64,000 nucleotides of DNA from a virus (lineage: Duplodnaviria; Caudoviricetes). The DNA lies in IMG/VR virus record IMGVR_UViG_3300028326_000328, positions 1 through 64,000 of that record; one strand, 5' to 3'. A program made the translations under genes and the position numbers. The notes under the pieces are model-generated. The model had not been told where the DNA came from, ran no database searches, and worked only from the letters and a program-made list of their open reading frames with translations. Of this stretch, positions 1-59,662 are shown piece after piece (positions within the stretch are counted from its first letter, which is position 1; each line of letters opens with the position of its first letter).

Positions 1-69
1 ATGTGTCGCGGCCGCAAACCGGGCCGCCGCCGCGGGCGGGTCAAGCCGCCGGGCCGAAAGGGGTACCCC

Positions 70-441
70 ATGACCACCTGCGCTGAAAGGGCCGCCTTCC
101 ACGCCGCCACCCGGGACGCGCTCCGGGCCGCCGCCCAAGCTGAGGCCGCCGCCGACCGGGCCGACCGGGCCGCCCGCGAAGCCGCCGAAGCCGAAGCCGC
201 CTTGGTCGCCGCCACCAACGCCGCCCGGCTGTACCGGGCCGCCGCCGAGCAGGCTGCGCTCCACGCCGCGGTCGCGGCCGACACCGCCGAGCTCCTGGCC
301 GACGAGATCCCGGCCGACATGGGGTCGGACGAAGAGGACGCCGACCTTTTGGAAGCCGCCATGCAGGCACACGGCCGGGCCTACGTCGCCGCCGACAAGG
401 CCCGCAAAGCCGCGGCCGCCGCCTGCCAGGTCAAGCACTGA
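70..441 (+). CDS. Ala-rich helical hypothetical protein with acidic core; first gene of accessory operon B
   Basis: ORF 1..441, likely start ATG 70 after GAAAGGGG; positional counterpart of 53915..54262. Confidence 0.6.
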   Translation: MTTCAERAAFHAATRDALRAAAQAEAAADRADRAAREAAEAEAALVAATNAARLYRAAAEQAALHAAVAADTAELLADEIPADMGSDEEDADLLEAAMQAHGRAYVAADKARKAAAAACQVKH

Positions 442-469
442 ACCCGAGCACACACAGGAGGAGACCGCC

Positions 470-1336
470 ATGAAGGACCAGACCTTTGGTATCGAGATCG
501 AGATGAACGGCATCACCCGGGCGAAGGCCGCGGAGGTCATCGCCGCACACTTTGACATCCAGCCCACCCACGTGGGCGGCTCCTACGACACCTGGGCGGT
601 GTACGACCCGGAAGGCCGGCCTTGGAAGCTGGTCTCGGACGCCAGCATCGCCGGCCCGTACGAGGAGCGCACCGAGCTGGTCAGCCCGATCTGCCGGTGG
701 GCGGACATCGCGACGGTCCAGGAACTGGTGCGCAAACTCCGCCGAGCCGGCGCCAAGGCACACGAAAGCTGCGGGATTCACGTGCACATCGGGCTGGGCA
801 GCCACACCCCGAAAACGCTCCGAAATCTGGTGAACATTGTCAACGCCAAGGAGGACCTGCTGACCCAGGCGCTGCAGATCTCACCGGAGCGCCGCACACG
901 CTGGTGCCAGCCGGTGGACGCGTACTTTCTCGCCCGGCTGAACCGGCTCAAGCCGAAAACCCTTCCGGAGTTCGCCCGGGTGTGGTACGACGACCGGAAC
1001 TGGGAACGCCATGCCCATGAGCATTACGACCCCAGCCGGTACCACCTTTTGAACCTCCACTCGGTGTTCCAGAAAGGTACCATCGAGTTCCGAGCCTTCA
1101 ACAGCACACTCCACGCGGGCGAAATCAAGTCCTTCATTCAACTGAGCATGGCGATTTCCCACCAAGCTTTGGAATCAAGTTCGGCCTCGCCACGCCGCCC
1201 GGAGACGGACAACCCCAAGTACACCTTCCGGTGCTGGCTGCTCCGGCTGGGGTTCATCGGCGACGAGTTCGCGACCGCCCGCGAGCACCTGCTCAAGCAC
1301 CTGCCCGGCAACGCCGCTTGGCGCCAGGCGAGCTGA
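470..1336 (+). CDS. Putative amidoligase (COOH-NH2 ligase type 2, Amidoligase_2-like)
   Basis: FGIEIE N-terminus, ELVSP, CGIHVHIG, TIEFRAFNST motifs; AGGAGG RBS. Confidence 0.88.
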   Translation: MKDQTFGIEIEMNGITRAKAAEVIAAHFDIQPTHVGGSYDTWAVYDPEGRPWKLVSDASIAGPYEERTELVSPICRWADIATVQELVRKLRRAGAKAHESCGIHVHIGLGSHTPKTLRNLVNIVNAKEDLLTQALQISPERRTRWCQPVDAYFLARLNRLKPKTLPEFARVWYDDRNWERHAHEHYDPSRYHLLNLHSVFQKGTIEFRAFNSTLHAGEIKSFIQLSMAISHQALESSSASPRRPETDNPKYTFRCWLLRLGFIGDEFATAREHLLKHLPGNAAWRQAS

Positions 1337-1356
1337 CAGCCGGTTTCAAATCAAGC

Positions 1357-1420
1357 GCATCCGCCTGACGAGGCCCGGTGGCTCCGGGCCGAAACGCGAA
1401 ACGCGTCGCGGGATAGCCGC
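1357..1420 (+). ncRNA. Type I hammerhead ribozyme HHR-B1
   Basis: CTGACGA 1365-71, stem II GGCCCGG/CCGGGCC, GAAA 1391-94, stem III CGCG/CGCG, GTC with cleavage after 1407, stem I CCGC/GCGG; loop TGGCT can pair with AGCCG 1415-19. Confidence 0.9.
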
Positions 1421-1452
1421 ACAGCTATGAAATCATATTGAGGAGGAACACC

Positions 1453-1848
1453 ATGAATTTCTTTGAACAGCAGCTCCGAGCGCTCACCGGCAGGAACACG
1501 GCTTTCAAATCAACCAGCCCAGTCTACGTCGGCCGCGCAGCTTTCCTGACGCTGGACGAGCACATCCGGGCACGCATCGAGTTCGTCACCACCGGCACAG
1601 CAGACAAGTACGAGGCCCTGCAGGTCACCATCCTCAACCGCACCGAGGGCAAGGTCGACACACTCCTGCTTCGAAATCAAGACCACTTCGCCTCCATTCG
1701 CACGCCCGGCGGCGACTTGAAGACCCCACACATCTGGATGTATCAGGGTAAGCCGGACTGGTACGGGCGGCCGACCGATTCGGACTTGAAAGCCCTATCC
1801 AAGGCCGCGCACGACTACATCGCGCTTTTCGCGCCGACCGGCTTTTGA
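1453..1848 (+). CDS. Hypothetical protein (131 aa)
   Basis: ORF with GAGGAGG RBS. Confidence 0.75.
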   Translation: MNFFEQQLRALTGRNTAFKSTSPVYVGRAAFLTLDEHIRARIEFVTTGTADKYEALQVTILNRTEGKVDTLLLRNQDHFASIRTPGGDLKTPHIWMYQGKPDWYGRPTDSDLKALSKAAHDYIALFAPTGF

Positions 1849-1853
1849 ATCAA

Positions 1854-1920
1854 GCCCGCCTGACGATGGGCCGCTGGCTTCGGCCCGAAACCGGCACATC
1901 GCCGGTCGCAGGAAGCCACC
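1854..1920 (+). ncRNA. Type I hammerhead ribozyme HHR-B2 (extra U after core)
   Basis: CTGACGA 1860-66, GGGCCG/CGGCCC, GAAA 1887-90, CCGGC/GCCGG, GTC 1905-07, loop CTGGCTT complementary to AAGCCA 1913-18; one mismatch in stem I. Confidence 0.75.
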
Positions 1921-1968
1921 GGCGGTGCCGGTTCCCAAGGCTCCCAAATCAAAAGGAGGACCACACAG

Positions 1969-2193
1969 ATGTACGAGCGCGAAAATGAACAGGACTTCGA
2001 AGAGGTGTTGCAGGACGGCCTCCGGGAACTGATCGCCCAAGACGACGACTACCGCACAGCGGAGGACCTGTGCTGGGAGAACCTTCGGGTTCAGACCTAT
2101 TCCGAAGACGGCGTGATGACGAACGACAAAGGTCTGGTCATCAGCCTGCCCAACGGCCGCGAATACCAACTGACCATAATCCGGAGCCGCTGA
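1969..2193 (+). CDS. Small acidic hypothetical protein (paralog of 55711..55935)
   Basis: AGGAGG RBS; shared C-terminus GVMTxxKGLxIxLPxGxEYQLTIxRSR. Confidence 0.8.
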   Translation: MYERENEQDFEEVLQDGLRELIAQDDDYRTAEDLCWENLRVQTYSEDGVMTNDKGLVISLPNGREYQLTIIRSR

Positions 2194-2225
2194 CACCCCG
2201 CTTTGAAATCAAGAGGAGGTACACC

Positions 2226-2408
2226 ATGAAGCGCATCTTTGACAAGACCACCTGCTGGAACATCTTTGACCACGCCAAGGACCCCGAGTGTTACTGGGCG
2301 CTACAGCACGCCGGGTTGCACGACGCCGCTCGCACAGCCGCCATCTACCTGACGCTCCGGCACCCGCTCCGGATGATCCCGGTGATCATCGCCTGCGCTC
2401 GCTCCTGA
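2226..2408 (+). CDS. Small hypothetical protein (60 aa)
   Basis: GAGGAGGT RBS before ATG 2226. Confidence 0.65.
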   Translation: MKRIFDKTTCWNIFDHAKDPECYWALQHAGLHDAARTAAIYLTLRHPLRMIPVIIACARS

Positions 2409-2447
2409 ATCAACCCTGACTCCCAAAGTAAAACACGGAGGTTTCAC

Positions 2448-2903
2448 ATGAACTACATCGCTTACGGCTCCAACATGGTCCAGGAACAGATAGCGTACCG
2501 CTGCCCGGACGCCCGGCTCATCGGCATGGGGTATCTGCCCGGCGCACAGTTGGAGTTCTTCCTTCACGCCACCGTAGAGCGCTCTCAAATCAAGGCCGGC
2601 CGGAATCCGGTCCCCACCCGTGTGCCGGTCGCCGTCTGGGAGATCAGCGAGGCCGACGAACAGCGGCTCGACCGCTACGAGGGCTACCCCAGCTACTACA
2701 TCAAGGCGGAGCGCACCGTGTGTATGACGGATGGCTCTGAAATCAAGGGCATGATCTACCTGATGAACCACAAGCGCGTCGCGCCGCCGACCCGGGATTA
2801 CTACGAGGGCATCCGGCGGGCGTACCTGGCGCTCGGGTTCCGCTCTGAAATCGAGAAGGTCTTGAAGCCCGCGCTGCTGCGCAGCCTGGGGCGCAAGACC
2901 TGA
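2448..2903 (+). CDS. Gamma-glutamylcyclotransferase (GGCT/AIG2-like) family protein
   Basis: YIAYGSNM N-terminus, LDRYEGYP motif. Confidence 0.88.
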   Translation: MNYIAYGSNMVQEQIAYRCPDARLIGMGYLPGAQLEFFLHATVERSQIKAGRNPVPTRVPVAVWEISEADEQRLDRYEGYPSYYIKAERTVCMTDGSEIKGMIYLMNHKRVAPPTRDYYEGIRRAYLALGFRSEIEKVLKPALLRSLGRKT

Positions 2904-2929
2904 TGCTTCCGATCGCGTTGGCCACAGCA

Positions 2930-2961
2930 AAAGCCGCTCTCAAATCTGAGGGCGGCTTGTA
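2930..2961. terminator. Probable bidirectional intrinsic terminator between convergent genes
   Basis: AAAAGCCGCTCTC-aaatct-GAGGGCGGCTTGT hairpin. Confidence 0.75.
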
Positions 2962-2995
2962 TCGTGAAGGACTATGATATCTCGGTGGGCGATCG

Positions 2996-3514
2996 TCAGT
3001 GTTGGATCAGGCCGTGGGCGATCTCGATCTCGTCGCCCGTCTTTCGGAACCGCAGCAGCAGCTGGCCCTCGCACACGTTGTAGACCGCCTGGAAGGGCTG
3101 CAGCCACAGGTGCGTCAGCCCCGGGCAGTGCCGGTACGCCTCTGCACGGTATGCTTCGAAATCTTCTTTGCCTTGTGCCCCGAGCCACTGTTCATACAGA
3201 TCCATCAGGTAGGGAACCTGCTCCTTCTGGAGCCGCGCCCACACGAGTTCAGCCGGCAGCGCTTTGAAATTGGAGATGGGCCGGCAGTCTTGGAAGAGGG
3301 CCCACTGGTTAAGTGGCAGCGGATTTTGCATCAGATCCAGCATCGCCTCTGCGGTACCGCAATCGTCGCAGACGTAGACATCCGCGTGACGGCTGAGCGC
3401 ATTACGCGTCACATGGGTGTTCATCACGCCGCTCCCGCACCGTGGACAGGGTAGGCACTCCCCAGCCAGCTGCCGGGCTTTAAAATCAAGCAGCTGTTCC
3501 TTCACATCCTTCAT
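2996..3514 (-). CDS. Zinc-finger (CxxC...CxxC) hypothetical protein; paralog of 57767..58285
   Basis: CPRCG...NALSRHADVYVCDDCG. Confidence 0.75.
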   Translation of the reverse strand: MKDVKEQLLDFKARQLAGECLPCPRCGSGVMNTHVTRNALSRHADVYVCDDCGTAEAMLDLMQNPLPLNQWALFQDCRPISNFKALPAELVWARLQKEQVPYLMDLYEQWLGAQGKEDFEAYRAEAYRHCPGLTHLWLQPFQAVYNVCEGQLLLRFRKTGDEIEIAHGLIQH

Positions 3515-4377
3515 TCAGCGATCTCCTCCCCGACAGTGGTGTGGGCTTCTCTGCGCAGGGCGGCGTACTTTTCCTTGTGCTTTGTCGCGGCAGCGTCGTT
3601 TGGAAACGCCGTATGGCCCTTCAATCCGCCCAGCAGGATGCGGCGCTCTTCTTTGAAATCAGCGCCGCCCATGCCCAGCCGCAGGAGCCATGACCGCGCG
3701 AAGTACTTCTCGTTCTCAGGTTCTTGGACCTGTGCGGTGATGCGGGTCGCTGACTGCGCAGCTTTGATAATCTTGTCCGTCAATAGGCCGTAGGTCGTCC
3801 AGCGTATCGGCTGTTCCGCGTGGAATGGGTAGCGTAGCGTGACGTTGTCGTCGGAATAGCCGAAGCCGTCCAACTCGCCGCGGGCTTTGAAATCAGTTAG
3901 CCGCTGCTGGAACACGACCATGTCTTCCGGCATGTGTTCCTTCAGGCTGTCAATCAGGTTCTCCGATATGAAAAGGTTCCCGGTTTCCGTCATGCGGTTG
4001 ATTAGGTATTGCTTGCTGTACAGCATGTGGATCAGGTTTAAAAGGCTCCCCACCATCATGCCAGGGGCGGGCTCGCTGATTTCCATGTTGTCAATGTCGT
4101 CGGCGCGTTCGGTGGCGGCTTCTGAATCAGCTTCCGGCGCAGGCCGCTCAATCTCCGGTTCCTCCGCCGCCCAGCCGTGATTTTGAAAGAATGGCAGTAG
4201 CGTGGTCCAGGCTTTTAAATCGTCGGTGACGATCGCCGCGTCCTTTTCCACCTTGACCGGGCCGATGCTGTAGGTGCAGCGCGGTACGCCGTCGTAGTGC
4301 GGTTCCAGGTGTAGCCATTCGCCGATGGCCTGGGCGAGCAGTTTACGCTGAGTGATAAGGCCGGTTTCAACTCTCAT
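3511..4377 (-). CDS. Conserved phage protein (often annotated 'virulence-related protein'); paralog of 58282..59088
   Basis: ENEKYFARSWLLRLG...GG...LL..LKGHTAF C-terminus. Confidence 0.75.
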   Translation of the reverse strand: MRVETGLITQRKLLAQAIGEWLHLEPHYDGVPRCTYSIGPVKVEKDAAIVTDDLKAWTTLLPFFQNHGWAAEEPEIERPAPEADSEAATERADDIDNMEISEPAPGMMVGSLLNLIHMLYSKQYLINRMTETGNLFISENLIDSLKEHMPEDMVVFQQRLTDFKARGELDGFGYSDDNVTLRYPFHAEQPIRWTTYGLLTDKIIKAAQSATRITAQVQEPENEKYFARSWLLRLGMGGADFKEERRILLGGLKGHTAFPNDAAATKHKEKYAALRREAHTTVGEEIAE

Positions 4378-4405
4378 GGGATTGCCTCCTTCGCTTTGGT
4401 AGTGA

Positions 4406-4435
4406 CATATACGCTCAATAAGCGATGGAAGTCAA
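4406..4435 (-). promoter_or_regulatory. Putative sigma70-type promoter
   Basis: TTGACT-N18-TATATG upstream of 4377 gene. Confidence 0.6.
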
Positions 4436-4547
4436 GCAAATTATGAGAAACCATAAGAAAGGAGCGGGATTTCTCCCGCCCCGATGGTTCTGACAAGTAT
4501 ACTATACTCCGCGATTCAAGGTGGCGAAAGTGTCTTTTAGTGGCATT

Positions 4548-4979
4548 TTACGCTTTCTCGAAATTCTTTTTCTTCATCAGCTCTTCTGCCGCCGCCAGCG
4601 CCTCGTTGTTCAGGCGGAGCAAGTATCGCTGGTTGTACTCAAGCTCCTCGCTGATGTAGTCCCAAGAGTGGCAGCATAGGTAGCGTTGTTCCAGAATCAA
4701 CTGGTACAGTGGCTTTTCGATTTCGCTGATGATGCGCATCTGCTCCAACTTCAGGTTGACAAGCCGGTCAATGTCCGCGTCAACTTCCTTCTGTAGATCG
4801 ACCATTCTGCAGATGGCCTCTTCCATCTGGTGAACGTCGCGGGATTCACAGGGCGGCATATCGCTCACCGTCGCGGTTGCCTTGGACACAAGTTCCCGGA
4901 TAGCGGCCAGATGATCCAGCTTGCTGTTGATGCGCTTGTTCAACGTCAGCGTCTGGCTGAAATATTCTTTCGTGGTCAT
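4548..4979 (-). CDS. DUF1492/ArpU-like late transcriptional regulator
   Basis: Position after SNF2; C-terminal HTH-like ILEQRYL...SWDYIS..L.Y. Confidence 0.7.
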   Translation of the reverse strand: MTTKEYFSQTLTLNKRINSKLDHLAAIRELVSKATATVSDMPPCESRDVHQMEEAICRMVDLQKEVDADIDRLVNLKLEQMRIISEIEKPLYQLILEQRYLCCHSWDYISEELEYNQRYLLRLNNEALAAAEELMKKKNFEKA

Positions 4980-5200
4980 TCCCTTGCCCCCGCTTCCAAT
5001 CTCTGTAGGAGTTCCTGTCCGTCCAGGTCGCTCAGCACCCGAAACCAATCATTTTGGAAGAAAGCCTCGACATCCTGTTTGTCATGAAGAGCTGTTGCAC
5101 CATACGGTTTCCGGATGAGTTGCTGAACCGCGCGCCGATAGTCATGCACGGCCTGCATGATGATCGCATCCGCGAGATTCCGATATCCGTTCTCACTCAT
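4976..5200 (-). CDS. Small phage hypothetical protein
   Basis: Overlapping start/stop coupling with both neighbours. Confidence 0.7.
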   Translation of the reverse strand: MSENGYRNLADAIIMQAVHDYRRAVQQLIRKPYGATALHDKQDVEAFFQNDWFRVLSDLDGQELLQRLEAGARE

Positions 5201-6552
5201 TTGTTCCCCTCCAGATTCACCTTCACTGCATCAATCAGCGCGGCCTGGGTCTTGTCCTTTTGTTTCAGGGCGGCGACGATCTGCTCGTCGATGGTGCCCT
5301 TCGTGATGATGTGGTGGATGACCACAGTCTCTGCCCGCTGCCCCTGGCGCCAGAGCCGGGCGTTGGTTTGTTGGTACAACTCCAGGCTCCAGGTCAGCCC
5401 GAACCACACCAGAGTGGAGCCGCCTGCCTGCAAATTCAAACCGTGTCCGGCAGATGCGGGGTGGATCAGGCCGACCGGTATTGTGTCGGCATTCCAGTCC
5501 GCGATGTCCTTGCTCGTCCGGATCTCCCGTACATGGAACCGCTCCTGGATCCGGGCGAGATCGTGCTTGAACCAATAGGCCACCAGCACCGGCTTGCCAT
5601 TCGCCGCTTCGATCAGATCCTCAAGCGCGTCCAGTTTTCGGTCGTGGATGTGGATGATGCGCTTTTCGTCGCCGTACACCGCACCGTTCGCCATCTGGCA
5701 GAGCTTGCCGGAGAGGGCGGCCGCGTTCACGGCGTCGATCTCCTCGCCTTTCAGGGACAGCACCAGCTCAGTGCGAAGTGTGTCGTAGGCGCTACGCTCC
5801 GGGCCGGAGAGCGTCACTGGCACCTCGTTCATCACGCACTCCGGCATCTTCAGGTAATCGGTGCTTTTCATGCTGATCGTGATGTCGGCGATCCGGCGGT
5901 AGATTTCGTCCTCCGCGCCGGGCTTAGGCTTGTAGCTGAACACTATCTGCTGGTTCCGTCTGTCGGGAGTGAAGAACTCTTCCCGGTAGTGGGTAACGAA
6001 CCGGCCAAGGCGCTTGCCCATGTCCAGCAGCCGGAACTCCGCCCACAGGTCCATCAGGCCGTTGCTGGAGGGGGTGCCCGTCAGGCCCACGATCCGCCTG
6101 ATATAGGGGCGCGCTTTCATCAGGCTCCGGAACCGCTTGGCCTGGTAGGACTTGAAGGACGAGAGTTCGTCGATCACGACCATGTCGTAGTCAAAGGGTA
6201 GGCCGCTGTCTTCGACCAACCACTGGACGTTCTCCCGGTTGATGATGTACACGCTGGCCAGCTGCTGGAGCGCCGTTTTGCGCTCGGGTTCCGTGCCCAC
6301 AGCGACCGAGTAGGTCAGGCCCCGTAGATGGTCCCACTTTACGATCTCTGCGGGCCATGTGTCGCGAGCCACTCGTAGTGGGGCGACGATCAGTACCTTG
6401 CGCACCTCGAAGAAATCCAAGCATAGGTCGAAGATAGCGGTCAGAGTAATGATGCTCTTGCCCAGACCCATTTCCAGCAAGATTGCGGCGACCGGGTGTG
6501 TTAGGATGAAGTCGGTCGCGTAGGTCTGATACTCATGGGGAACATATTTCAT
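5197..6552 (-). CDS. SNF2-family helicase
   Basis: LEMGLGKS Walker A, VIDELS, GLTGTP, HGLNLQ motifs. Confidence 0.92.
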   Translation of the reverse strand: MKYVPHEYQTYATDFILTHPVAAILLEMGLGKSIITLTAIFDLCLDFFEVRKVLIVAPLRVARDTWPAEIVKWDHLRGLTYSVAVGTEPERKTALQQLASVYIINRENVQWLVEDSGLPFDYDMVVIDELSSFKSYQAKRFRSLMKARPYIRRIVGLTGTPSSNGLMDLWAEFRLLDMGKRLGRFVTHYREEFFTPDRRNQQIVFSYKPKPGAEDEIYRRIADITISMKSTDYLKMPECVMNEVPVTLSGPERSAYDTLRTELVLSLKGEEIDAVNAAALSGKLCQMANGAVYGDEKRIIHIHDRKLDALEDLIEAANGKPVLVAYWFKHDLARIQERFHVREIRTSKDIADWNADTIPVGLIHPASAGHGLNLQAGGSTLVWFGLTWSLELYQQTNARLWRQGQRAETVVIHHIITKGTIDEQIVAALKQKDKTQAALIDAVKVNLEGNK

Positions 6553-6814
6553 CCAGGACGCCTCCTATCTGCTCCGGTCGGTCGATCACGTACACCCGAA
6601 ACCCTAGCGCCTCCAGCTGCCCTTTCCGCTTTACCTGCAACGGGCGCAGGGCCTTCCCGGGCGCTTTCACTTCCACGAACGCCAGGCGCCCACCTGGAAG
6701 AAGGACGAGGCGATCGGGCACACCTGCCCATCCGGTGGAGATGAACTTTGGCGCAAGACCGCCAATCTGATGGACAACTTGGACCATTTTTTGCTCAATG
6801 TGTTTCTCCAGCAT
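6533..6814 (-). CDS. VRR-NUC domain nuclease
   Basis: GVPDRLVLLPGG..AFVEVKAPG. Confidence 0.9.
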   Translation of the reverse strand: MLEKHIEQKMVQVVHQIGGLAPKFISTGWAGVPDRLVLLPGGRLAFVEVKAPGKALRPLQVKRKGQLEALGFRVYVIDRPEQIGGVLDEICSP

Positions 6815-6958
6815 GTGCTTCCTCCATTGGAACAAGTGGAACAGTGGAACAACTCCGCCCTTATATTCCTTACGCGCGGGTGTGCTTGTGTTTCTTGTTT
6901 CCCCTATCCCATTTTGAATATAAGGAGTTGAGTTGTTCCACTTGTTCCTCTCCTTGTA

Positions 6959-9319
6959 TTACAAGGGTTTTGGGTTGGAACAAGTCCGCCTGTACATGCG
7001 CTGCTTCCCGTAGAAGGGCAAACGCGTGAACAGTTTGGTGCGCTCCCAGCCGTTGACCTGCGTCATCAGAGCCGCTATCGCGTAGCTGTCGGCGGGCTTG
7101 AGCTCCGAAAGCTGCCGCCCAAAGCACTCGCACCAGATTTCGGCATTGCTGACGGCGTCGCGGCGGATGCTGCCTTTAGCTGATACCGGACTGTCACGCT
7201 CCGCGATGAAACTTCGGCGGTTATAGACGTCCATGGCGTCCCAGCCCTCCGGCAGCAGAGTTTCAAGGTACTCCTCCACCATACCCTGGCGCTCGTCGGC
7301 CTCCATCGCCTCGCGCTGCGCTTCCTCAGCAGCGGGAATCATATCGCCTTCGAGGTACAGCTTCTCGCCCGCTTCATAGATCGCCTTGGCCTCCGCCCAA
7401 ATCTGGTCACGCTCTTCCGGCGTGAAGCTCCACTTCTTGACCTGCTCTTCCTGATGAACCTTCACGATCCAGAACCGGCGGTTGCCTGTGACATCGCGCA
7501 GATACCCGCGCTCGCCGTTGACAGAGCCAATGATGATACATTGGCGGGGATGGCTCTCCACGGTCTTCCCGTAGCTGGGCCGGTACTTGTCGTCCGCTGT
7601 AGATATGAACGCTTTCACTTTCTCAATGTCGGCCTTCTTCATCCCGGCCAACTCACCGATTTCGACGATCCAGAAGCCCTGAAGCTTTTCCGCGCCGGAC
7701 TTGTCGTCCATGTCAGTGAGCGAGAGCGTTTCCGAGTAATACTCGTCGCCCACGAGATCCTTAAACAGCGTGCTCTTGCCGATCCCCTGCGCGCCGTCGA
7801 ACACGAGCACGCTGTCGAACTTGGTGCCTGGACGGTAGATGCGCGCGACCGCCGCCGCAAATGTCTTGCGAGTGACGGCGCGGACATAGGGTGTGTCGTC
7901 GGCTTGCAGGCAGCGTACGAGCAATGTCTCTATCCTGGGCTTATAATCCCATGACGGCAGACTGTTCAGGTAATCGCGAATTGGGTGGAAGCGTCGGTCG
8001 TCGGCCACCTTAGTGAAGCAAACGTCGTGGTTGCGAGTAGAGAATGGCAGGTACCGCATGTCGATGAGCGCCTTCATCTGTGCGGTGTCGGCGTCGCGCC
8101 AGTATCGGTTTTCAACCGGGCGCTCCCACGGCACTTCGCCCGTGACCTGTACCCGGTTGGCGAGCTCGTTGTAGCCGAAGTTTGCGAAGTCGGGATCGTG
8201 TGTCAGGATCAGCATCAGATTCCGAACGCTGTTTTCCAGCACCTTGCTTTTCGGCTGATACCTGAGAAGCGTGCGCCAATTCGCGTCATTCCCGAAATCC
8301 TCCTCCGCTTCCTTTCGCTTTTCCTCAAGGGCAAGCAGCTTCACCTTGTCCAGGCTCATTGCGAGTTCGCACATCTGCCTATAGGACTTTTTCTCATCCT
8401 CATCCGGAAATCTGTGGACGCGGACAATATCAAAGGCGTTGCAGAGCTTCAGGTATGCCGGGTCTTTTGCGTGATGGCTGTAGACAAATCTGCCGTTCTC
8501 CTTGACCTCGACGCCCGCCATGCTGCTTGACTCGATCAGGTGATACCGCTCGTCGCTGTCAGTGGGTTCGTAGACATCTGACAGAAGCTCGTCTATGGCG
8601 AGGTTGATGGGGTAAAAAACACGGTTGAAAAGCCCGATCACGCCCTCCTTGGCCAGCGGGTCTTGAACCTTCTGAAACGTAACGCTGTTTGCCCTGCTCT
8701 CCCGCGACGACGTAGGAAGCCTTGTTGGGTCTCTCCAGCCCGGATGCGCGTTCAAAATATCGTCGGGATTGAGCCAGTCCTTTTCGACCTCTATAAAGAC
8801 AAACTCACCATTGGCGGGCGTACTCGGCCAGTACATGAGCTGATTGGGCAGATAGGAGCACTCGTCGAAATTGTCGATGCCAAGTGTCTCGGCGACATAT
8901 CTCGATACCGCCACAAACTCCTCTGGCGTCACGTCTCTCGTGAGCGGGAAAACGACGCGTACTCTGGGATTGTCCGGCGCGTGGCTGTGCGTTGAGTACA
9001 GGACAGATGTGTATGGCGTGGCGCTCTCGTAGTTTTGTAGGAACGCCGCATCGATTCTGTCCCCGTCCAGCGCGATCATGGAGCGCGACGCCACCGTGTC
9101 GATCTTCCGTCTGCCGCCTTCCAGCATCCCTGCCACAAAGCCGCCGTGATCCTTTGCCGCATCTTTCTGTGCTTTGGAAAACTTCGCGTAATCCTCTGCG
9201 GACTCAGGTGTTCGGATGGGAACCTTTAAGCGTTCCTTCAGCGCGTCAAAGCTTGTGGTTTTATTCACCCACGTTTTCGCAAGCCGGTTGCTACCGTAGG
9301 CAATCGCAAGATTACGCAT
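6959..9319 (-). CDS. VapE (virulence-associated E) primase/helicase
   Basis: DGAQGIGKST Walker A; GNRRFW motif; N-terminal primase-like region. Confidence 0.88.
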   Translation of the reverse strand: MRNLAIAYGSNRLAKTWVNKTTSFDALKERLKVPIRTPESAEDYAKFSKAQKDAAKDHGGFVAGMLEGGRRKIDTVASRSMIALDGDRIDAAFLQNYESATPYTSVLYSTHSHAPDNPRVRVVFPLTRDVTPEEFVAVSRYVAETLGIDNFDECSYLPNQLMYWPSTPANGEFVFIEVEKDWLNPDDILNAHPGWRDPTRLPTSSRESRANSVTFQKVQDPLAKEGVIGLFNRVFYPINLAIDELLSDVYEPTDSDERYHLIESSSMAGVEVKENGRFVYSHHAKDPAYLKLCNAFDIVRVHRFPDEDEKKSYRQMCELAMSLDKVKLLALEEKRKEAEEDFGNDANWRTLLRYQPKSKVLENSVRNLMLILTHDPDFANFGYNELANRVQVTGEVPWERPVENRYWRDADTAQMKALIDMRYLPFSTRNHDVCFTKVADDRRFHPIRDYLNSLPSWDYKPRIETLLVRCLQADDTPYVRAVTRKTFAAAVARIYRPGTKFDSVLVFDGAQGIGKSTLFKDLVGDEYYSETLSLTDMDDKSGAEKLQGFWIVEIGELAGMKKADIEKVKAFISTADDKYRPSYGKTVESHPRQCIIIGSVNGERGYLRDVTGNRRFWIVKVHQEEQVKKWSFTPEERDQIWAEAKAIYEAGEKLYLEGDMIPAAEEAQREAMEADERQGMVEEYLETLLPEGWDAMDVYNRRSFIAERDSPVSAKGSIRRDAVSNAEIWCECFGRQLSELKPADSYAIAALMTQVNGWERTKLFTRLPFYGKQRMYRRTCSNPKPL

Positions 9320-53400: not shown

Positions 53401-53500
53401 GGGGCTGATACCCCCACCCCCGAATTTCGCGGGATTTCACGCGAGAGGGGGGCGCGGTCTCCAGCCGGGGCGCTCCAGAGATCGAATCCCCCCTCCCCAA
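53401..53500 (-). other. Putative cos / packaging-initiation region
   Basis: G-run-rich segment (minus strand GGGGAGGGGGG...GAGACCGCGCCCCCCTCTCGCGTG...CGCGAAATTCGGGGGTGGGG) resembling sequences upstream of terS in HK97-type phages; from pattern memory only. Confidence 0.45.
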
Positions 53501-53505
53501 TACAG

Positions 53506-53690
53506 TTTCGCAGAGCAAAGCGCGAAAGCCGACCACGGCGGTGGACTTTCGCACGGCGAAGCGCGAAAGCCGACCGCGCCGCTGGGACTTCTGCGAAGCA
53601 AAGCGCAAAACCCACCACGGCGGTGGGACTTCTGCGAAGCAAAGCGCAAAAGCCGACCGCGCCGGTCGGGCTTTCGCAGAGCAAAGCGGA
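53506..53690. repeat. Tandem array of about 4.5 imperfect 41-42 bp self-complementary repeats
   Basis: Units TTTCGCAGAGCAAAGCGCGAAAGCCGACCACGGCGGTGGAC and variants. Confidence 0.85.
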
Positions 53691-53816
53691 GAAGCGTTTT
53701 CGGGAAAAAACGGGCGGCGGGCGGGCGAAAACGGGCCGCGCGAAAGGCGCTTCCTATATAGCGCGTGGGGCCGCCGCCGTATCAGAAAAGACGCAAAAAC
53801 GTCGCCGTTAGTTATC

Positions 53817-53846: not shown

Positions 53847-53914
53847 GGGTCGCGGCAAAAAACGCCGCCGCCGCGGGCGGGAAAAACCGCCGGGCGCGAA
53901 AGGGGAACCCCGCC

Positions 53915-54262
53915 GTGACCACCGCCGAAAAAACCGCCGCCGAAACCTTCTGCGCCGCCGCCGCCGCGCAAACCGCCGAAACCCGCGCCGCCGCCGACCG
54001 GGCCTTCCGGGCCAGCGCCCGCGCCGCCGAGGTGCCCTTCCGCGAAACCCGCGCCGCCGCCGCCCGCGCCAGCGAGGACGCCCGTCGCGCCGCCGAAAAA
54101 GCCGACGCCCTTTTGGACGGCTTTGACCCGGAGCCCTACAGCGACGGGCCGGGCGGGCTTTTCGACCAGACCTTTCAGGCCCTCATGGCGGCACACATGG
54201 CCCTAGACAGCGCCGCCCGCCGCGCCGCCTTCGCCGCCCGGTGTGCCCAAGAGAAGGCGTAG
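53915..54262 (+). CDS. Ala-rich helical hypothetical protein; first gene of accessory operon A
   Basis: GTG start after GAAAGGGG; positional counterpart of 70..441. Confidence 0.6.
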   Translation: MTTAEKTAAETFCAAAAAQTAETRAAADRAFRASARAAEVPFRETRAAAARASEDARRAAEKADALLDGFDPEPYSDGPGGLFDQTFQALMAAHMALDSAARRAAFAARCAQEKA

Positions 54263-54327
54263 GCCCGCCCGATGAGGGCCGGTGGCTCCGGCCCGAAACG
54301 CGCACACCGCGCGTCGCGGGAAGCCGC
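54263..54327 (+). ncRNA. Type I hammerhead ribozyme HHR-A1 (CCGATGA core variant)
   Basis: CCCGC-CCGATGA-GGGCCGG-tggct-CCGGCCC-GAAA-CGCGC-acacc-GCGCG-TC(54315)-GCGGG-AAGCCG. Confidence 0.8.
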
Positions 54328-54353
54328 AAAAACACGAAAGGAGAGGTCTCCTC

Positions 54354-55220
54354 ATGAAAGACCAGACATTCGGCATTGAGATTGAAATGAACCACATCTC
54401 TCGCGCCAAGGCGGCGGAGGTCATCGCCGCGCATTTCGGCACACGCGTGGAATTTGTCGGCGGCACCTACGACACCCGGTGTGTGCCCGACGGGCAAGGC
54501 CGCAAATGGAAGGTGGTGTCCGACGCCAGCATCGATGGGCCTGCCAACGAGCGCACGGAATTTGTCAGCCCCATCTGCCGGTGGGAGGACATCGAAACGG
54601 TACAGGAATTGGTGCGCAACCTCCGCAAGGCGGGCGCGCGACCCGACCCCAGCTGCGGCATCCACGTCCACATCGGGCGCGGGCGGCACACGCCCAAAAC
54701 CCTTCGGAATTTGGTCAACTTGGTCAACGCCAAGGAGGACTTGCTTACGCTGGCTCTCCAAATCTCGCCCGAGCGCCGCGAGCGGTGGTGCAAAAGAATC
54801 GACCCCGACTTCCTCGAACGCCTGAACCGCCGCAAACCGCAAACCGACGCCGCCTTCGCCCAGCTTTGGTACAACACCTCCGGCTGGCAATCACACGCCA
54901 ACCAGCACTACGACCAAAGTCGCTACCGGCTCCTAAATCTACACAGCGTTTTCCAAAAGGGCACGGTGGAATTCCGCGCCTTCAACGCGACGCTCCACGC
55001 GGGCGAGGTCAAGACCTACATCCAGCTTTGCATGGCGATTTCGCACATGGCTTTGGAATCAAGTTCGGCCTCCCCGCGCCGCCCGGAAACGGACAACCCG
55101 AAGTACACCTTCCGGTGCTGGCTCCTCCGGCTGGGGTTCATCGGCCCGGAGTTTGAAACCGCCCGCCAGCACCTGCTCAAATACCTGCCCGGCAACGCCG
55201 CTTGGAGACAGGCGGGCTGA
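54354..55220 (+). CDS. Putative amidoligase (paralog of 470..1336, same length)
   Basis: FGIEIE, CGIHVHIG, TVEFRAFN. Confidence 0.88.
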   Translation: MKDQTFGIEIEMNHISRAKAAEVIAAHFGTRVEFVGGTYDTRCVPDGQGRKWKVVSDASIDGPANERTEFVSPICRWEDIETVQELVRNLRKAGARPDPSCGIHVHIGRGRHTPKTLRNLVNLVNAKEDLLTLALQISPERRERWCKRIDPDFLERLNRRKPQTDAAFAQLWYNTSGWQSHANQHYDQSRYRLLNLHSVFQKGTVEFRAFNATLHAGEVKTYIQLCMAISHMALESSSASPRRPETDNPKYTFRCWLLRLGFIGPEFETARQHLLKYLPGNAAWRQAG

Positions 55221-55260
55221 CGCCCGACCGGCACAGCTTCCAAATCAAGTGTGCTGTGCC

Positions 55261-55321
55261 GCCCGCCCGACGAGGCTGATTGGCCATCAGCCGAAACGTG
55301 CCACACGTCGCGGGAAGCCAC
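55261..55321 (+). ncRNA. Type I hammerhead ribozyme HHR-A2 (CCGACGA core variant)
   Basis: CCCGC-CCGACGA-GGCTGAT-tggcc-ATCAGCC-GAAA-CGTG-cca-CACG-TC(55309)-GCGGG-AAGCCA. Confidence 0.8.
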
Positions 55322-55368
55322 CGGCAGTGCCGGTACCAAAGCCCCCAAATCAAGCGAGGAGGTACACC

Positions 55369-55602
55369 ATGAACGAACGTATCCACCAAGAAATCCGAGG
55401 ACTCCTGAATCACATGCGCCAAGAGCCATTCAATACGCGCGAACACGCCCTCAACATCGCCGCAATCGGTGGCATGCTCACAGCCATCAGGTTCATCACC
55501 GGCGAAAGCTGGGCGATGGTCAACGCAAATCGCGCGACCCGGATGCACATCCAGAACGAAAGGACGGGCGAGTGCATCGAGGGGGATGTCGAAATGTTCT
55601 GA
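55369..55602 (+). CDS. Small hypothetical protein (77 aa)
   Basis: GAGGAGGT RBS. Confidence 0.72.
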   Translation: MNERIHQEIRGLLNHMRQEPFNTREHALNIAAIGGMLTAIRFITGESWAMVNANRATRMHIQNERTGECIEGDVEMF

Positions 55603-55607
55603 AATAA

Positions 55608-55680
55608 GCCCGCCTGACGAGCAGCCCGGTGGCTCCGGGCCGAAACGCTCCGAAATCAACCGGAGCATCGCGGGAAGCCC
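55608..55680 (+). ncRNA. Type I hammerhead ribozyme HHR-A3 (ATC triplet, bulged stem II)
   Basis: CCCGC-CTGACGA-G(ca)GCCCGG-tggct-CCGGGCC-GAAA-CGCTCCG-aaatcaac-CGGAGC-ATC(55669)-GCGGG. Confidence 0.7.
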
Positions 55681-55710
55681 AGCTTCCAAATCAAACGCAG
55701 GAGGTACACC

Positions 55711-55935
55711 ATGAACGAGCATGTGCAAAATCAGGATTCCATCATCACCGAGGAAATCGTAGAGGAAGCCCTTGACGGAATCCTAAACGGGGAATGGGAC
55801 ACAGAAAACAGCGCCCTCGAAGGCGCTCGAACCCGGACATTCCAACAGGCGGGCGTCATGACCTACAACAAGGGGTTGATCATCACCTTGCCCGACGGCA
55901 CAGAGTACCAACTGACCATCGTCCGCAGCCGGTAA
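55711..55935 (+). CDS. Small acidic hypothetical protein (paralog of 1969..2193)
   Basis: AGGAGGT RBS; conserved C-terminus. Confidence 0.8.
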   Translation: MNEHVQNQDSIITEEIVEEALDGILNGEWDTENSALEGARTRTFQQAGVMTYNKGLIITLPDGTEYQLTIVRSR

Positions 55936-55937
55936 GA

Positions 55938-56002
55938 CGCCCACGGGGACACAGCTTAGCACAGGACGAAACGCTCCTAACCGGGAGTGTCGCGGGAGCC
56001 GC
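55938..56002 (+). ncRNA. Degenerate hammerhead remnant
   Basis: GAAA-CGCTCC-taacc-GGGAGTG-TC-GCGGG retained; CTGANGA core and stem II lost. Confidence 0.45.
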
Positions 56003-56033
56003 AAGCTTCCAAATCAAGAAGGAGGCACACGTC

Positions 56034-56336
56034 ATGACGATGGAGGAAAAATGGAACGCCGCTCATGCCCTTACTGACCTCGCCGCTCGCAAGCTCGCCT
56101 TCGCCATTGTACAAACCGAATGGGAAATCGAGGAGGCCACCAAGCGCCTCTAAGACGCGCGCAAACGCGTCGAGGATTCCGCCACCCGGTCCAGTTCTGC
56201 AATGTACGCAGACAGCATCGAAGGCTGGCTGCGCGATTGGCGAAACGAGTACACGCGCCTTGCGGAAAAGAACCGAACGTTGGAGCTCCTGAATCACCTT
56301 GCCCGCGACGCCAAGCCAGAGGCCGCCCGCTCCTAA
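56034..56336 (+). pseudogene. Hypothetical coiled-coil protein interrupted by in-frame TAA (56151-56153)
   Basis: AAGGAGG RBS; same frame continues DARKRVEDS...AARS* to 56336. Confidence 0.6.
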
Positions 56337-56342
56337 ATCAAA

Positions 56343-56392
56343 CTGCCTGAAGATGGCCTTTGGCACAGGCCGGAACGCTCTTCAATCAAGGA
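56343..56392 (+). ncRNA. Degenerate hammerhead remnant
   Basis: CTGAAGA-t-GGCCT-ttggcac-AGGCC-GGAA; no clear NUH or stem I. Confidence 0.35.
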
Positions 56393-56402
56393 GGGACACA
56401 TC

Positions 56403-56621
56403 ATGAAGATCACCACCGCAGCACAGTGCTTTGATATCCTCGACTGGTTCGACGATCCGCTTTACGACTACCTCGCACACAACCTTGTCGCCAAGCTCGA
56501 CGGCGAGGAACGCATCGCCCGAGCGCTCCCACATCTGATCGAACATACCACCGCGCCTGTTGCGGCTCACGCGGATAAGGCGAACGCTTACCCGGTGGAG
56601 TTTTGGAATCAACCCGCCTGA
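56403..56621 (+). CDS. Small hypothetical protein (72 aa); stop codon lies in ribozyme core
   Basis: AGGAGGG RBS; TGA of CTGACGA is the stop. Confidence 0.7.
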   Translation: MKITTAAQCFDILDWFDDPLYDYLAHNLVAKLDGEERIARALPHLIEHTTAPVAAHADKANAYPVEFWNQPA

Positions 56622-56678
56622 CGAGTGCTGCATGGCTCGCAGCCGAAACCGCCCGCTTGGGCGGTCGCGGGAAGCTAC
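56612..56678 (+). ncRNA. Type I hammerhead ribozyme HHR-A4
   Basis: CCCGC-CTGACGA-G(t)GCTGC-atggctc-GCAGCC-GAAA-CCGCCC-gctt-GGGCGG-TC(56666)-GCGGG-AAGCTA. Confidence 0.9.
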
Positions 56679-56710
56679 AGCTTCCAAATCAAACGCAGGA
56701 GGTTTACACC

Positions 56711-56857
56711 ATGAATAGGATTGTCATCAAGGTCTGGCGGGGATTGGTTTCCGAAGTCTACGCAAGCGACGCCAACACAGAAGTCATCGTTATAGATGAG
56801 GATTGCGACGAGGTTCTACTCGCAGACACAGACTTGCCCGCACATCAGGTTTACTGA
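56711..56857 (+). CDS. Small acidic hypothetical protein (48 aa)
   Basis: AGGAGGT RBS before ATG 56711. Confidence 0.65.
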   Translation: MNRIVIKVWRGLVSEVYASDANTEVIVIDEDCDEVLLADTDLPAHQVY

Positions 56858-56887
56858 GCTTACAAATCAACCAGAGGAGGTATTCGA

Positions 56888-57094
56888 TTGAAAAGCATTT
56901 GCATCCGCGTGGAAGATGAAATACATCGCCAGTTGAAATGTGTTCTGCTGTATCGAGGTTCAACTCTTCAGGACTTCGTGATCGGACTAATCGAACGCGA
57001 AATCGAACGCGAGGCGAGCGAAATCGCGTACAACGACACAACCGGCGAGGCAACAAGGCTCTTTCAGCGCGTCGGCATTCCTACCAAGCTGTGA
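56888..57094 (+). CDS. Ribbon-helix-helix-like DNA-binding protein
   Basis: KSICIRVEDEIHRQLK...TLQDFVIGLIE pattern; AGGAGGT RBS with TTG start. Confidence 0.6.
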   Translation: MKSICIRVEDEIHRQLKCVLLYRGSTLQDFVIGLIEREIEREASEIAYNDTTGEATRLFQRVGIPTKL

Positions 57095-57112
57095 AATTAA
57101 GGAGGAAACACA

Positions 57113-57553
57113 ATGAAGTACATCGCTTACGGTTCCAACATGGTCAAGGAGCAAATGGACTACCGCTGCCCGGACGCCAGACTCATCGGCACCGGATACA
57201 TCAAGCAGGCCCGCTTGGAATTCTATCTCCACGCCACCGTCAAACGCTCCCAAATCAAGGACTCGCGTGTGCCGGTGGCGGTGTGGGAGATCTCGGAGGT
57301 AGACGAACGGCGACTCGACCGGTACGAGGGGTTCCCGGATTACTACATCAAGGAGGAATGGCCGGTCACCCTGTCGGACGGCTCCGAAATCAAGGGGATG
57401 ATTTACCTGATGAAGCGCATCCGCAAAGCGCCGCCGAACATGGATTACTTCCAAGGCATCTTCAACGCCTACGAGGACTTGGGCCTTGAATCGGAAATCA
57501 ACAGCGTGTTGATGCCCGCGCTTAGCCGCAGCCTCCGGCGCAAGAAGCGCTGA
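57113..57553 (+). CDS. Gamma-glutamylcyclotransferase family protein (paralog of 2448..2903)
   Basis: YIAYGSNM, LDRYEGFP. Confidence 0.88.
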   Translation: MKYIAYGSNMVKEQMDYRCPDARLIGTGYIKQARLEFYLHATVKRSQIKDSRVPVAVWEISEVDERRLDRYEGFPDYYIKEEWPVTLSDGSEIKGMIYLMKRIRKAPPNMDYFQGIFNAYEDLGLESEINSVLMPALSRSLRRKKR

Positions 57554-57573
57554 CGCACAGCCCCAAACGAGAT

Positions 57574-57604
57574 AAGCCGCTCTCCATCGAGGGCGGCTTT
57601 TTTG
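57574..57604 (+). terminator. Intrinsic terminator of accessory operon A
   Basis: AAGCCGCTCTC-catc-GAGGGCGGCTTTTTT. Confidence 0.8.
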
Positions 57605-57766
57605 CTCTGGAATTGGGCCGACGTTGGCGCGTGTCGGGCCTTGGAATCGGCGGTCGGACAAACCCTCGACCAAGGCCCGCAAGGCCGCACGTGGGGCGAA
57701 CGTGGCGGCGACGCGGGCAAAGAAAAAGCAGCCGCACGGGCTGCTTTGGAATCGAGCGGCGGAGGG

Positions 57767-58285
57767 CTATGGAATCAAGTCCAAGGCTACCTCGGTACCG
57801 CTTTCCGTCGCGCGAAACCGGACGAGCACTTTTCCATCCGCCACATCGTAGACCGCTTGAAACGGGTGGCTCCATAGCGACGTCAGCCCTGCGCACTCCG
57901 TGTAGGCTTTCACCCGATACACATTGAAATCCACTTTGTCGCGCACGGCCTGCCATTCCTCAAAGATGCGGCGCAGACGGGGTACTTGTTCTTTTTGAAG
58001 GTGCTCCATAACGACCGCGCCCGGCAGCGCTTCGAAATCAGATTTCGAGCGCTCCGCTTTGAAACACGCCCAAAATTCAAGCGGCATCGGGCTTTGCATC
58101 ATCTCAAGCACCGCCTCCGTCGTGCCGCAATCATCGCAGACATACAAACCGACCTGACGGCTGAGCGCGTTCCGATGGATTTTCCGGTTCATGGAATCCT
58201 GCCCACAGCGCGGGCAAAGCATGTGCTCCCCGGCCATCTGCCGGACTCTCAAATCAAGTAAGACCTGTTCTTGTTTCTCAGTCAT
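57767..58285 (-). CDS. Zinc-finger hypothetical protein (paralog of 2996..3514)
   Basis: CPRCG...NALSRQ..LYVCDDCG. Confidence 0.75.
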   Translation of the reverse strand: MTEKQEQVLLDLRVRQMAGEHMLCPRCGQDSMNRKIHRNALSRQVGLYVCDDCGTTEAVLEMMQSPMPLEFWACFKAERSKSDFEALPGAVVMEHLQKEQVPRLRRIFEEWQAVRDKVDFNVYRVKAYTECAGLTSLWSHPFQAVYDVADGKVLVRFRATESGTEVALDLIP

Positions 58286-59088
58286 CTTGCTTCGCCCCCC
58301 CTTGTTTCGCGGGCAATCCTGCGGATTTCGGCGTACTTGTCCTTGTGCTTCATGGCTTCATCATCGTTGCGGAAAGCCGTGTGGCCTTTGAGGCCTGTGA
58401 GCAGAGCGTTCCGGGACGCTTTGAAATCAGCGCCGCCAAAGCCCAACCGTAAAAGCCAAGAGCGCAACACATACTTTTCGTTCTCCGGGCGGCGCACCTC
58501 CGCGTTGACCCGCTTCGCCTCTCGCGCCGCGCGCACCATGGCGCTGACCAAGTCGGCATACGCCTTGTTCTTTTCCGGGGCTTCGTCCAGCGGGAAGTTC
58601 AGCGTGACTGTGCCGTCTTGGAAATCGACGCCGGTCAGGTCGCCCAGCGCTTTGAAATCGCCCATCAGGGTTTCAAAATGAGCAAGGGTTTCCGGCAGGT
58701 ATTCGCCCAAGCGAGTCGTGACCGCCTCGGAAATCGAGAAACTCTCGCGCCGCGTGACCCGGTTCAACAGGTGCTGGTAGCCGTAGAGCGTGTAAATCAA
58801 ATTCCGAAGCTGATTCCCGTCCATGTCCTCCGTGGGCACCGAAATCGCCAGCGTCTCAATCTCTGTTTCGATCTCCGGTTCGATGAAGCCGTGTTCCATC
58901 AGGAAGGGCTTCAAGCCTTCCAGTGCCTCGGCATCCTCGCCGGTGATGGAACCGTCGCGCTCCACCGTCACCGGGCCGATGCTGTAGGAAAAGGATGGCG
59001 GCCCCTGATACCGCGATTCCGCTTGCAGGTGCTCTGCAATCTTCTTCACCAAGGTGCGCCGGTCTTCCGCGTGGGTTTGGATGGTCAT
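58282..59088 (-). CDS. Conserved phage protein ('virulence-related'; paralog of 3511..4377)
   Basis: ENEKYVLRSWLLRLGFGG...LKGHTAF. Confidence 0.75.
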   Translation of the reverse strand: MTIQTHAEDRRTLVKKIAEHLQAESRYQGPPSFSYSIGPVTVERDGSITGEDAEALEGLKPFLMEHGFIEPEIETEIETLAISVPTEDMDGNQLRNLIYTLYGYQHLLNRVTRRESFSISEAVTTRLGEYLPETLAHFETLMGDFKALGDLTGVDFQDGTVTLNFPLDEAPEKNKAYADLVSAMVRAAREAKRVNAEVRRPENEKYVLRSWLLRLGFGGADFKASRNALLTGLKGHTAFRNDDEAMKHKDKYAEIRRIARETRGGEAR

Positions 59089-59116
59089 GCTTCATACCCC
59101 CTTCAATCTGGTAGGA

Positions 59117-59147
59117 CATTAATCACTCTAAAGGGGATGGAAGTCAA
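59117..59147 (-). promoter_or_regulatory. Putative promoter
   Basis: TTGACT-N18-ATTAAT with GAGTGATTAATG. Confidence 0.6.
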
Positions 59148-59605: not shown

Positions 59606-59662
59606 GGGAATACCTCCATAGTAATTTTTACGTGATATCAATCACTCTGAAGGGCTTCAAAG

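Follow-up and report, generated by a model that had tools for sequence, protein, structure and literature searches.

Two RNA elements lying between the genes of an amidoligase operon, HHR-B1 and HHR-B2, are predicted with good confidence to be pseudoknot-stabilised type I hammerhead self-cleaving ribozymes, and, judging from their sequences, they are likely to cut the polycistronic RNA co-transcriptionally into gene-sized mRNAs with standard leaders. The window (the whole stretch of DNA analysed here, 64,000 nucleotides) comprises bases 1-64000 of a 72,330-base IMG/VR provirus record. The host element is a temperate Christensenellales-type gut phage, to which the operon is accessory. On the + strand, the order is an Ala-rich ORF, the amidoligase gene, B1, a 131-aa ORF, B2, a 74-aa acidic ORF, a 60-aa ORF, and a gene for a gamma-glutamyl cyclotransferase-like protein (GGCT). 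No promoter-like sites were found in positions 1-3300, and the sole predicted terminator-like site is weak and lies inside the GGCT ORF; a hairpin with a weak U-tract was read by eye 3′ of the GGCT gene. The 131-aa ORF has no Pfam or PHROG match, and its Atlas matches are only hypothetical proteins. The features of the operon were read from the sequence, the ribozymes also by a covariance model (R2, described below).

470-1336, + strand: amidoligase gene, upstream of B1 (PF12224, E 1.1e-64; phrog_2443)
1342-1355, + strand: polar motif GGTTTCAAATCAAG, just 5′ of B1
1358-1421, + strand: HHR-B1, type I hammerhead (sequence; R2)
1424-1436, + strand: motif variant GCTATGAAATCAT, 3′ of B1, with a GCUAU complementary to AUAGC in the B1 tail
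1453-1848, + strand: 131-aa ORF between B1 and B2
1841-1854, + strand: polar motif GCTTTTGAATCAAG, just 5′ of B2, containing the stop codon of the 131-aa ORF (1846-1848)
1853-1920, + strand: HHR-B2, type I hammerhead (sequence; R2)
1918-1932, + strand: hairpin ACCGGC-GGU-GCCGGU, directly 3′ of B2
1940-1953, + strand: polar motif GCTCCCAAATCAAA, between B2 and the Shine-Dalgarno (SD) sequence GGAGG at 1955-1959
1969-2193, + strand: conserved 74-aa acidic ORF, downstream of B2 (paralogue at 55711-55935)
2448-2903, + strand: GGCT gene, last of the operon (PF06094, E 1.5e-10; phrog_2520)

An earlier note on this DNA had placed B1 after the amidoligase gene at 1357-1420, with a canonical core and GUC at 1405-1407, and B2 ahead of the 74-aa acidic gene at 1854-1920. 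The setting, core and GUC of B1 are exactly as described, B2 does precede the acidic gene, and the boundaries now stand at 1358-1421 and 1853-1920. The two ribozymes have the catalytic core CUGACGA...GAAA...GUC in common, and all hammerhead core positions (C3 U4 G5 A6 N7 G8 A9 / G12 A13 A14 / A15.1-U16.1, H17) are occupied as expected in both. B1 is laid out as UCCGC / CUGACGA / GGCCCGG-UGGCU-CCGGGCC / GAAA / CGCG-AAA-CGCG / U C / GCGGG, then AUAGCCG, and B2 as CCCGC / CUGACGA-U / GGGCCG-CUGGCUU-CGGCCC / GAAA / CCGGC-ACAUC-GCCGG / U C / GCAGG, then AAGCCA. The parts are placed as follows.

1360-1364 with 1408-1412, + strand: B1 stem I (UCCGC/GCGGG)
1365-1371, + strand: B1 core CUGACGA
1372-1378 with 1384-1390, + strand: B1 stem II; loop UGGCU at 1379-1383
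1391-1394, + strand: B1 GAAA
1394-1398 with 1402-1406, + strand: B1 stem III
1405-1407, + strand: B1 GUC; predicted cut between C1407 and G1408
1379-1383 with 1415-1419, + strand: B1 pseudoknot of loop II UGGCU with tail AGCCG, 5 bp, one of them G.U
1855-1859 with 1908-1912, + strand: B2 stem I
1860-1866, + strand: B2 core, plus extra U1867
1868-1873 with 1881-1886, + strand: B2 stem II; loop CUGGCUU at 1874-1880
1887-1890, + strand: B2 GAAA
1890-1895 with 1901-1906, + strand: B2 stem III
1905-1907, + strand: B2 GUC; predicted cut between C1907 and G1908
1875-1880 with 1913-1918, + strand: B2 pseudoknot of UGGCUU with AAGCCA, 6 bp

In B2, an extra U follows A9, as it does in 95 of 180 family copies, and stem I contains a mismatch, C1857.A1910, of a kind seen in just 2 of the 180. 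The hairpin behind B2 is the counterpart of ACCGGC-AGU-GCCGGU at 55320-55334, which follows copy A2 of the second element (below), a resemblance that the earlier note had recognised; other family members are also trailed by similar covarying hairpins, e.g., AGCGGC/GCCGC and AGCGAC/GUCGC. The hairpin at 1918-1932 can also capture the strands of B2 stem III, yielding a competing fold of -43.9 kcal/mol, and the hammerhead fold of B2 lies 5 kcal/mol above the minimum free energy (MFE) structure, the pseudoknot not being counted. B1 is without such defects, and its MFE structure retains stems II and III. In longer contexts, the nested MFE structure swaps stem I for a tail hairpin, and single-sequence folding z-scores are not significant (-1.0 and -1.25 for the two ribozymes). 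Self-cleavage is therefore rated differently for the two: it is predicted with high confidence for B1, whereas B2, slightly degraded by its C.A mismatch and strong competing fold, probably cleaves as well, a prediction held with less assurance.

The premise of two diverged elements holds, because window positions 1-7700 are collinear with 53900-64000 at roughly 40-75% amino-acid identity and the two window amidoligases are 76.4% identical. Eight ribozyme copies had been claimed for the window; six are intact, B1 and B2 included, and the other two have decayed. The copies of the second element, element A, are listed here.

54262-54328, + strand: copy A1, core CCGAUGA (U4C)
55260-55322, + strand: copy A2, core CCGACGA (U4C), positional counterpart of B1
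55607-55682, + strand: copy A3, AUC site, polar motif inside the stem III loop, positional counterpart of B2
55920-56003, + strand: decayed copy, 5′ catalytic strand lost; stem III, GUC and tail kept; 19.8 bits (R2)
56345-56378, + strand: decayed copy, GGAA for GAAA, without stem III and cut site; 16.6 bits (R2)
56611-56679, + strand: copy A6, canonical

The U4C change (CCGAYGA) at 54269-54275 in A1 and at 55267-55273 in A2 affects a normally invariant core position. The UGA within the A6 core CUGACGA (56619-56621) is the stop codon of ORF 56403-56621, and the 131-aa ORF ends at 1846-1848, inside the polar motif and 5 nt before B2. Upstream ORFs thus stop inside the ribozyme unit, so that a terminating ribosome would cover the 5′ strand of the ribozyme. 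Three further observations concern operon A and its surroundings. Just upstream of it, at 53500-53700, lie about four tandem units of ~45 nt, each a GC hairpin flanked by GCAAAGCGC(G/A)AAAGCC-like arms, which could be an origin, a terminator array or a small RNA. Two ORFs of 39 aa and 44 aa at 56034-56336 share one frame, are split by a TAA at 56151-56153, and are probably a single small gene broken by an in-frame stop. Finally, a 268-aa protein encoded at 58282-59088 on the - strand has the C terminus ..KYVLRSWLLRLGFGG.DFK..R..L...L.G..AFR, which closely resembles the tails of the amidoligases at 470-1336 (+) and 54354-55220 (+), ..KYTFRCWLLRLGFIG.EF...R..L...LPGNAAWR; the three proteins look as if they had a common C-terminal module.

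The bare pattern CTGANGA..GAAA..GTH matches the window five times against 3.9 matches expected and is not above chance; the full fold, unlike this core pattern, is beyond chance. Rfam gave no match at gathering thresholds across the whole window and, at E<=10 on positions 1200-2100, only spurious groES/Mcr7 matches. With RF00163 (Hammerhead_1), whose gathering cut-off is 34 bits, B1 scored 23 bits and A6 11.1 bits, and B2 was not among the matches at E<=10; no family member in the window or in 13 ribozyme-rich loci passed that threshold. We used two covariance models, R1 from the six intact window copies and R2 from genome-locus matches only, with no window sequences; R2 is only semi-independent, as R1 found its training sequences. 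The R2 scores were 64.9 bits (E 2.3e-14) for B1 and 72.5 bits (E 2.7e-16) for B2; of the element-A copies, all four intact ones were recovered too, and the two decayed ones with weak scores. R1 returned 105 matches in the window and viral loci and 137 in the genome loci (242 in total, 210 of them distinct), and all 242 lie on the amidoligase (operon) strand. A strict hand-written descriptor, consisting of the core and three perfect stems, recovered a subset of the R1 sites, again on the operon strand only, with no match on the minus strand of 139 sources. Other ribozyme classes (twister, pistol, hatchet, etc.) were not detected in these loci.

Covariation supports the three-helix fold around the core. 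In the genome-derived alignment, standard pairs fill 90.9% of cells, compared with 76.5% after shuffling, and two-sided changes occur in 354 cells, compared with 140; for neither measure did any of 500 shuffles reach the observed value. When the 3′ partners were shifted by 1 to 3 columns, pairing fell to 26-44%, and the viral alignment gave the same covariation picture. Most of the covariation is carried by stems II and III (4-7 pairs with two-sided changes; one stem II pair reads CG:53, GC:43, UA:16), while in stem I pairing reaches 99.5% and the two outer pairs show CG-to-UA changes. For the window alone (six intact copies), pairing holds in 92.8% of cells versus 78.6% when shuffled (0 of 500 shuffles reaching the observed value), with two-sided changes at 8 of 23 pairs. 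Comparison of B1 with its positional counterpart A2 shows double changes at four pairs of stem II and at one of stem III, none of which disrupts pairing. Alignments fitted to a model lean towards the structure of that model; the shifted-column controls and the descriptor scan nevertheless speak for a genuine covariation signal. The proposal that compensatory changes reflect selection on the RNA structure is thus supported by the window copies, and the larger alignments agree.

The loop II-tail pseudoknot is likely, though its covariation is thin. The earlier note had held that the stems differ among copies while the pseudoknot stays the same; the complementarity is indeed there in both B1 and B2, but it is mostly conserved rather than covarying. 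Its three central pairs (GGC/GCC) are nearly invariant and 94-100% paired. One pair covaries, from C:G to U:A, in 3 rows of each alignment, where GGU loops accompany AACC tails, and a subgroup uses another pairing, GCGG with CCGC. A global loop II/tail permutation test returned the same mean for own and shuffled partners (4.01 and 4.01), both partners being conserved.

The family was surveyed with the window amidoligase protein (470-1333) as the query, which yielded 58 IMG/VR loci and 80 species-representative genome loci, the latter mostly from Christensenellales, Oscillospiraceae and unclassified Clostridia MAGs. Homologous loci had been named beforehand as the place where absence of the fold would count against it. 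Ribozymes are present, up to 8 per locus, in most of the 116 loci with an amidoligase at least 55.5% identical to that of the window, and many of the ribozyme-free exceptions are contigs ending right after the amidoligase gene. The 22 loci with an amidoligase at most 55.4% identical to it contain no ribozyme, and distant low-GC amidoligase operons (50-55% identity; Lachnospiraceae, Sedimentibacter, Faecalimonas and Ruminococcus phages) gave no hammerhead by R1, Rfam or the descriptor. The copies are intergenic, and an SD sequence and a start codon follow nearly every one of them. Among 180 parsed distinct copies, the core reads CUGACGA in 132, CUGAUGA in 38, CUGARGA in 3 and CCGAYGA (U4C) in 7, and 178 have GUC as the cut site, the other 2 AUC; the catalytic core is canonical in ~96%. 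Further family traits are stem I CCCGC/GCGGG, the tail AAGCC and, in most cases, an inserted U or G behind A9. In three copies (L089:2336-2428, L092:2326-2417 and L090:2329-2438), stem I, core and stem II are kept, and a ~45-nt two-hairpin insert ending ..AAAUAGAC before CGCGGG replaces stem III and GUC; these are either inactive or an unusual variant.

Two copies also occupy unannotated intergenic gaps in the complete genome of the Christensenellales phage NatCom_6392 (PV036419.1, 'Ca. Heliusvirales'). This deposited genome has no Rfam hammerhead match at E<=1, and neither the 'Ca. Heliusvirales' genome records nor the paper on the lineage mention ribozymes. In related deposited phages, terminase and portal genes adjoin the operon. 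Near the amidoligase operon of the Ruminococcus phage NatCom_28274 (PV036439.1), a SAM riboswitch (RF00162, 59.9 bits, above gathering) lies at L146:3691-3814 (-) and is not annotated in the record; an unannotated tRNA was also seen at L144:4150-4220 (-).

In the processing scheme that we favour, the polycistronic RNA would be made, and each ribozyme would fold and cut after C17 (C1407 in B1, C1907 in B2). The upstream message would keep the compact ribozyme and a 2′,3′-cyclic phosphate as its 3′ end, and the downstream message would begin with 5′-OH-GCGGGA.. or GCAGGA.., 45 or 61 nt ahead of the next start codon. Its leader would be stereotyped, with the tail or hairpin followed by the polar motif and then the SD sequence, and through cutting, neighbouring cassettes would become independent of one another in stability and translation, as with an insulator. 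We infer the cleavage itself, its co-transcriptional timing and its effect on expression. In Bacillus, RNase J1 degrades the 5′-OH RNA left by the glmS ribozyme; cleavage could therefore destabilise rather than stabilise the mRNA.

The polar motif raises the question of whether cutting is conditional. Every ribozyme is flanked by copies of this 14-nt motif, GCTYYNRAATCAAG, with 1621 occurrences on the + strand of the fetched loci and 72 on the - strand. An exception concerns the 3′ leader of ribozymes located upstream of the amidoligase gene (L059:3916, L007:3918, L005:3917, L113:3919, L063:3913 and window 54262), which lacks the motif, the tail almost directly joining the SD sequence; downstream of the amidoligase gene, the motif is present in all. 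A role as a boxA-like, host-wide antitermination signal was considered and rejected, since in three host genomes the motif occurs almost exclusively, and the exact motif only, inside these operons. The tail GGAAGC, the first six bases of the motif (GCUUCC) and the SD sequence GGAGG are mutually complementary, and their pairing might couple cleavage, mRNA protection and SD exposure: before the cut, stem I and the pseudoknot would face competition from pairing of the tail with the motif, after it a 5′-proximal hairpin would form, and the switch could respond to a factor binding the motif. Motif copies right after a ribozyme carry GCTTCC in 42% of cases, compared with 7.5% elsewhere, and for 78 of 101 3′ products the MFE structure has tail and motif paired in a 6-bp hairpin, which begins 3 nt from the 5′ end that the cut would create. 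Non-pairing tails are replaced by a dedicated complement, e.g., GGAGC-ACA-GCUCC, and the MFE structures of full-length A3 and A6 exchange stem I for the tail-motif hairpin. RNAalifold also predicts this hairpin, with compensatory change at 3 of 5 pairs, but the covariation term is small (-0.44), and the predicted 3′-product folds of B1 and B2 do not cleanly use tail-motif pairing. Moreover, the motif is a DNA-strand-polar word found also inside genes of both orientations, so its complementarity to the tail may be incidental. Conditional cutting of this kind is, on balance, unlikely. The tail-motif hairpin and the competing fold of B2 do suggest, in structure models, that cutting would be kinetic (co-transcriptional) and perhaps regulated.

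Unconditional or not, processing by active ribozymes has to be weighed against the reading that the copies are selfish repeats or relics that have lost catalysis, kept only for homologous recombination between cassettes. Cassette gain and loss does map to these sites. Window positions 1-1413 align with L062, the closest relative, at 93.5% identity and positions 1838-2958 at 78.8%; both alignments overlap on the lone ribozyme of L062, identity shifts there, and the breakpoint is inside the ribozyme. L062 is without the unit made up of the B1 tail, the 131-aa ORF and the 5′ part of B2, and its ribozyme differs from B1 at N7, at the outermost stem I pair (U.G to C-G) and in the tail. Likewise, the cassette that comes first in L045 is not found in L046, whose junction falls in the motif following the ribozyme. 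L017 keeps the gene order of the window, and its B2 counterpart (L017:5392) has a degenerate stem III and cut site; together with the cassette losses, this indicates that copies turn over. Such breakpoints inside ribozyme or motif, the decayed copies (55920-56003, 56345-56378 and L017:5392) and the occurrence of U4C cores would all fit dead relics. However, joints need only sequence identity, yet here the stems vary with pairing kept and the catalytic positions are invariant, a combination that reads as the signature of selection on an active ribozyme. We thus regard dead relics as improbable. By these alignments, the ribozyme and motif sequences double as recombination joints for cassettes, and within the processing scheme the same conserved units would serve both cutting and cassette gain or loss. 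Ribozyme units so mark mosaic breakpoints and help explain how cassette arrays are reshuffled.

A last alternative is that flanking ribozymes release an RNA with 5′-OH and 2′,3′-cyclic phosphate ends that an RtcB-type ligase circularises or splices; B1 and B2 bracket a single ORF, and hammerheads leave RNA ends of the chemical type that RtcB accepts. This is very improbable, for Perreault et al. found no circular or spliced products in comparable prophage arrays (PMC3088659), and no sequence feature points to it. Returning to the processing of polycistronic RNA, a more far-reaching version takes 'motif - hammerhead - motif/hairpin - SD' as a portable, naturally occurring unit that would both insulate expression and join cassettes, its freed tail refolding with the downstream motif; we offer it tentatively, as one of the less likely readings. 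If true, the hairpin would protect the 5′-OH mRNA and release the SD sequence, shuffled accessory (possibly anti-defence) genes would be expressed independently, and cutting could be tuned by a factor reading the polar motif.

The concept has been known since 2011, and the family is a well-supported further instance of prophage-gene-flanking hammerheads. Perreault et al. described hundreds of bacterial hammerheads near prophage genes, clusters that flank single prophage genes in arrays that cleave in vitro, and pseudoknots in all three hammerhead types (PMC3088659). A 2019 review lists the role of phage-operon hammerheads as unresolved (PMC6765202). As in the 2011 clusters, same-strand hammerheads here separate individual genes of one prophage transcript, different genes are flanked in different cases, predicted pseudoknots take the place of loop-loop contacts, and processing into gene-length mRNAs is the proposed function; B1 and B2 bracket one ORF, element A holds four intact and two decayed copies, and the record is an IMG/VR provirus. 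In contrast to those clusters, the present copies belong to a specific and very uniform type I family tied to amidoligase-GGCT operons of high-GC Clostridia phages, each embedded between copies of the polar 14-nt motif. Neither the family tail sequence nor the word 'amidoligase' was found in the supplements of that study (PMC3088659), its published Clostridium scindens locus, sought by PCR primer, gave only chance matches in unrelated genomes, and we found no paper joining hammerheads to amidoligase. The analysis also brings out how large the family is, that it keeps to a single operon type, that it is connected with cassette exchange, and that Rfam thresholds do not detect it: annotation by those thresholds overlooks several hundred copies in gut phages that are abundant. 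The amidoligase-GGCT link provides a gene-defined setting for asking why ribozymes cut phage operons, and the recurrence of self-cleaving RNAs near the same phage-like genes is a trait of bacterial twister, pistol and hatchet ribozymes too (PMC6765202). The family agrees with RF00163 in topology (stem I open) and catalytic core, but B1 stays under the cut-off of that model. RiboJ, reportedly presented by Lou et al. in 2012, is said to be an engineered insulator in which a hammerhead and a hairpin precede the ribosome-binding site. By analogy, the natural units may act as RiboJ does, the hammerhead removing upstream context and leaving a short standard leader with a hairpin before the ribosome-binding site.
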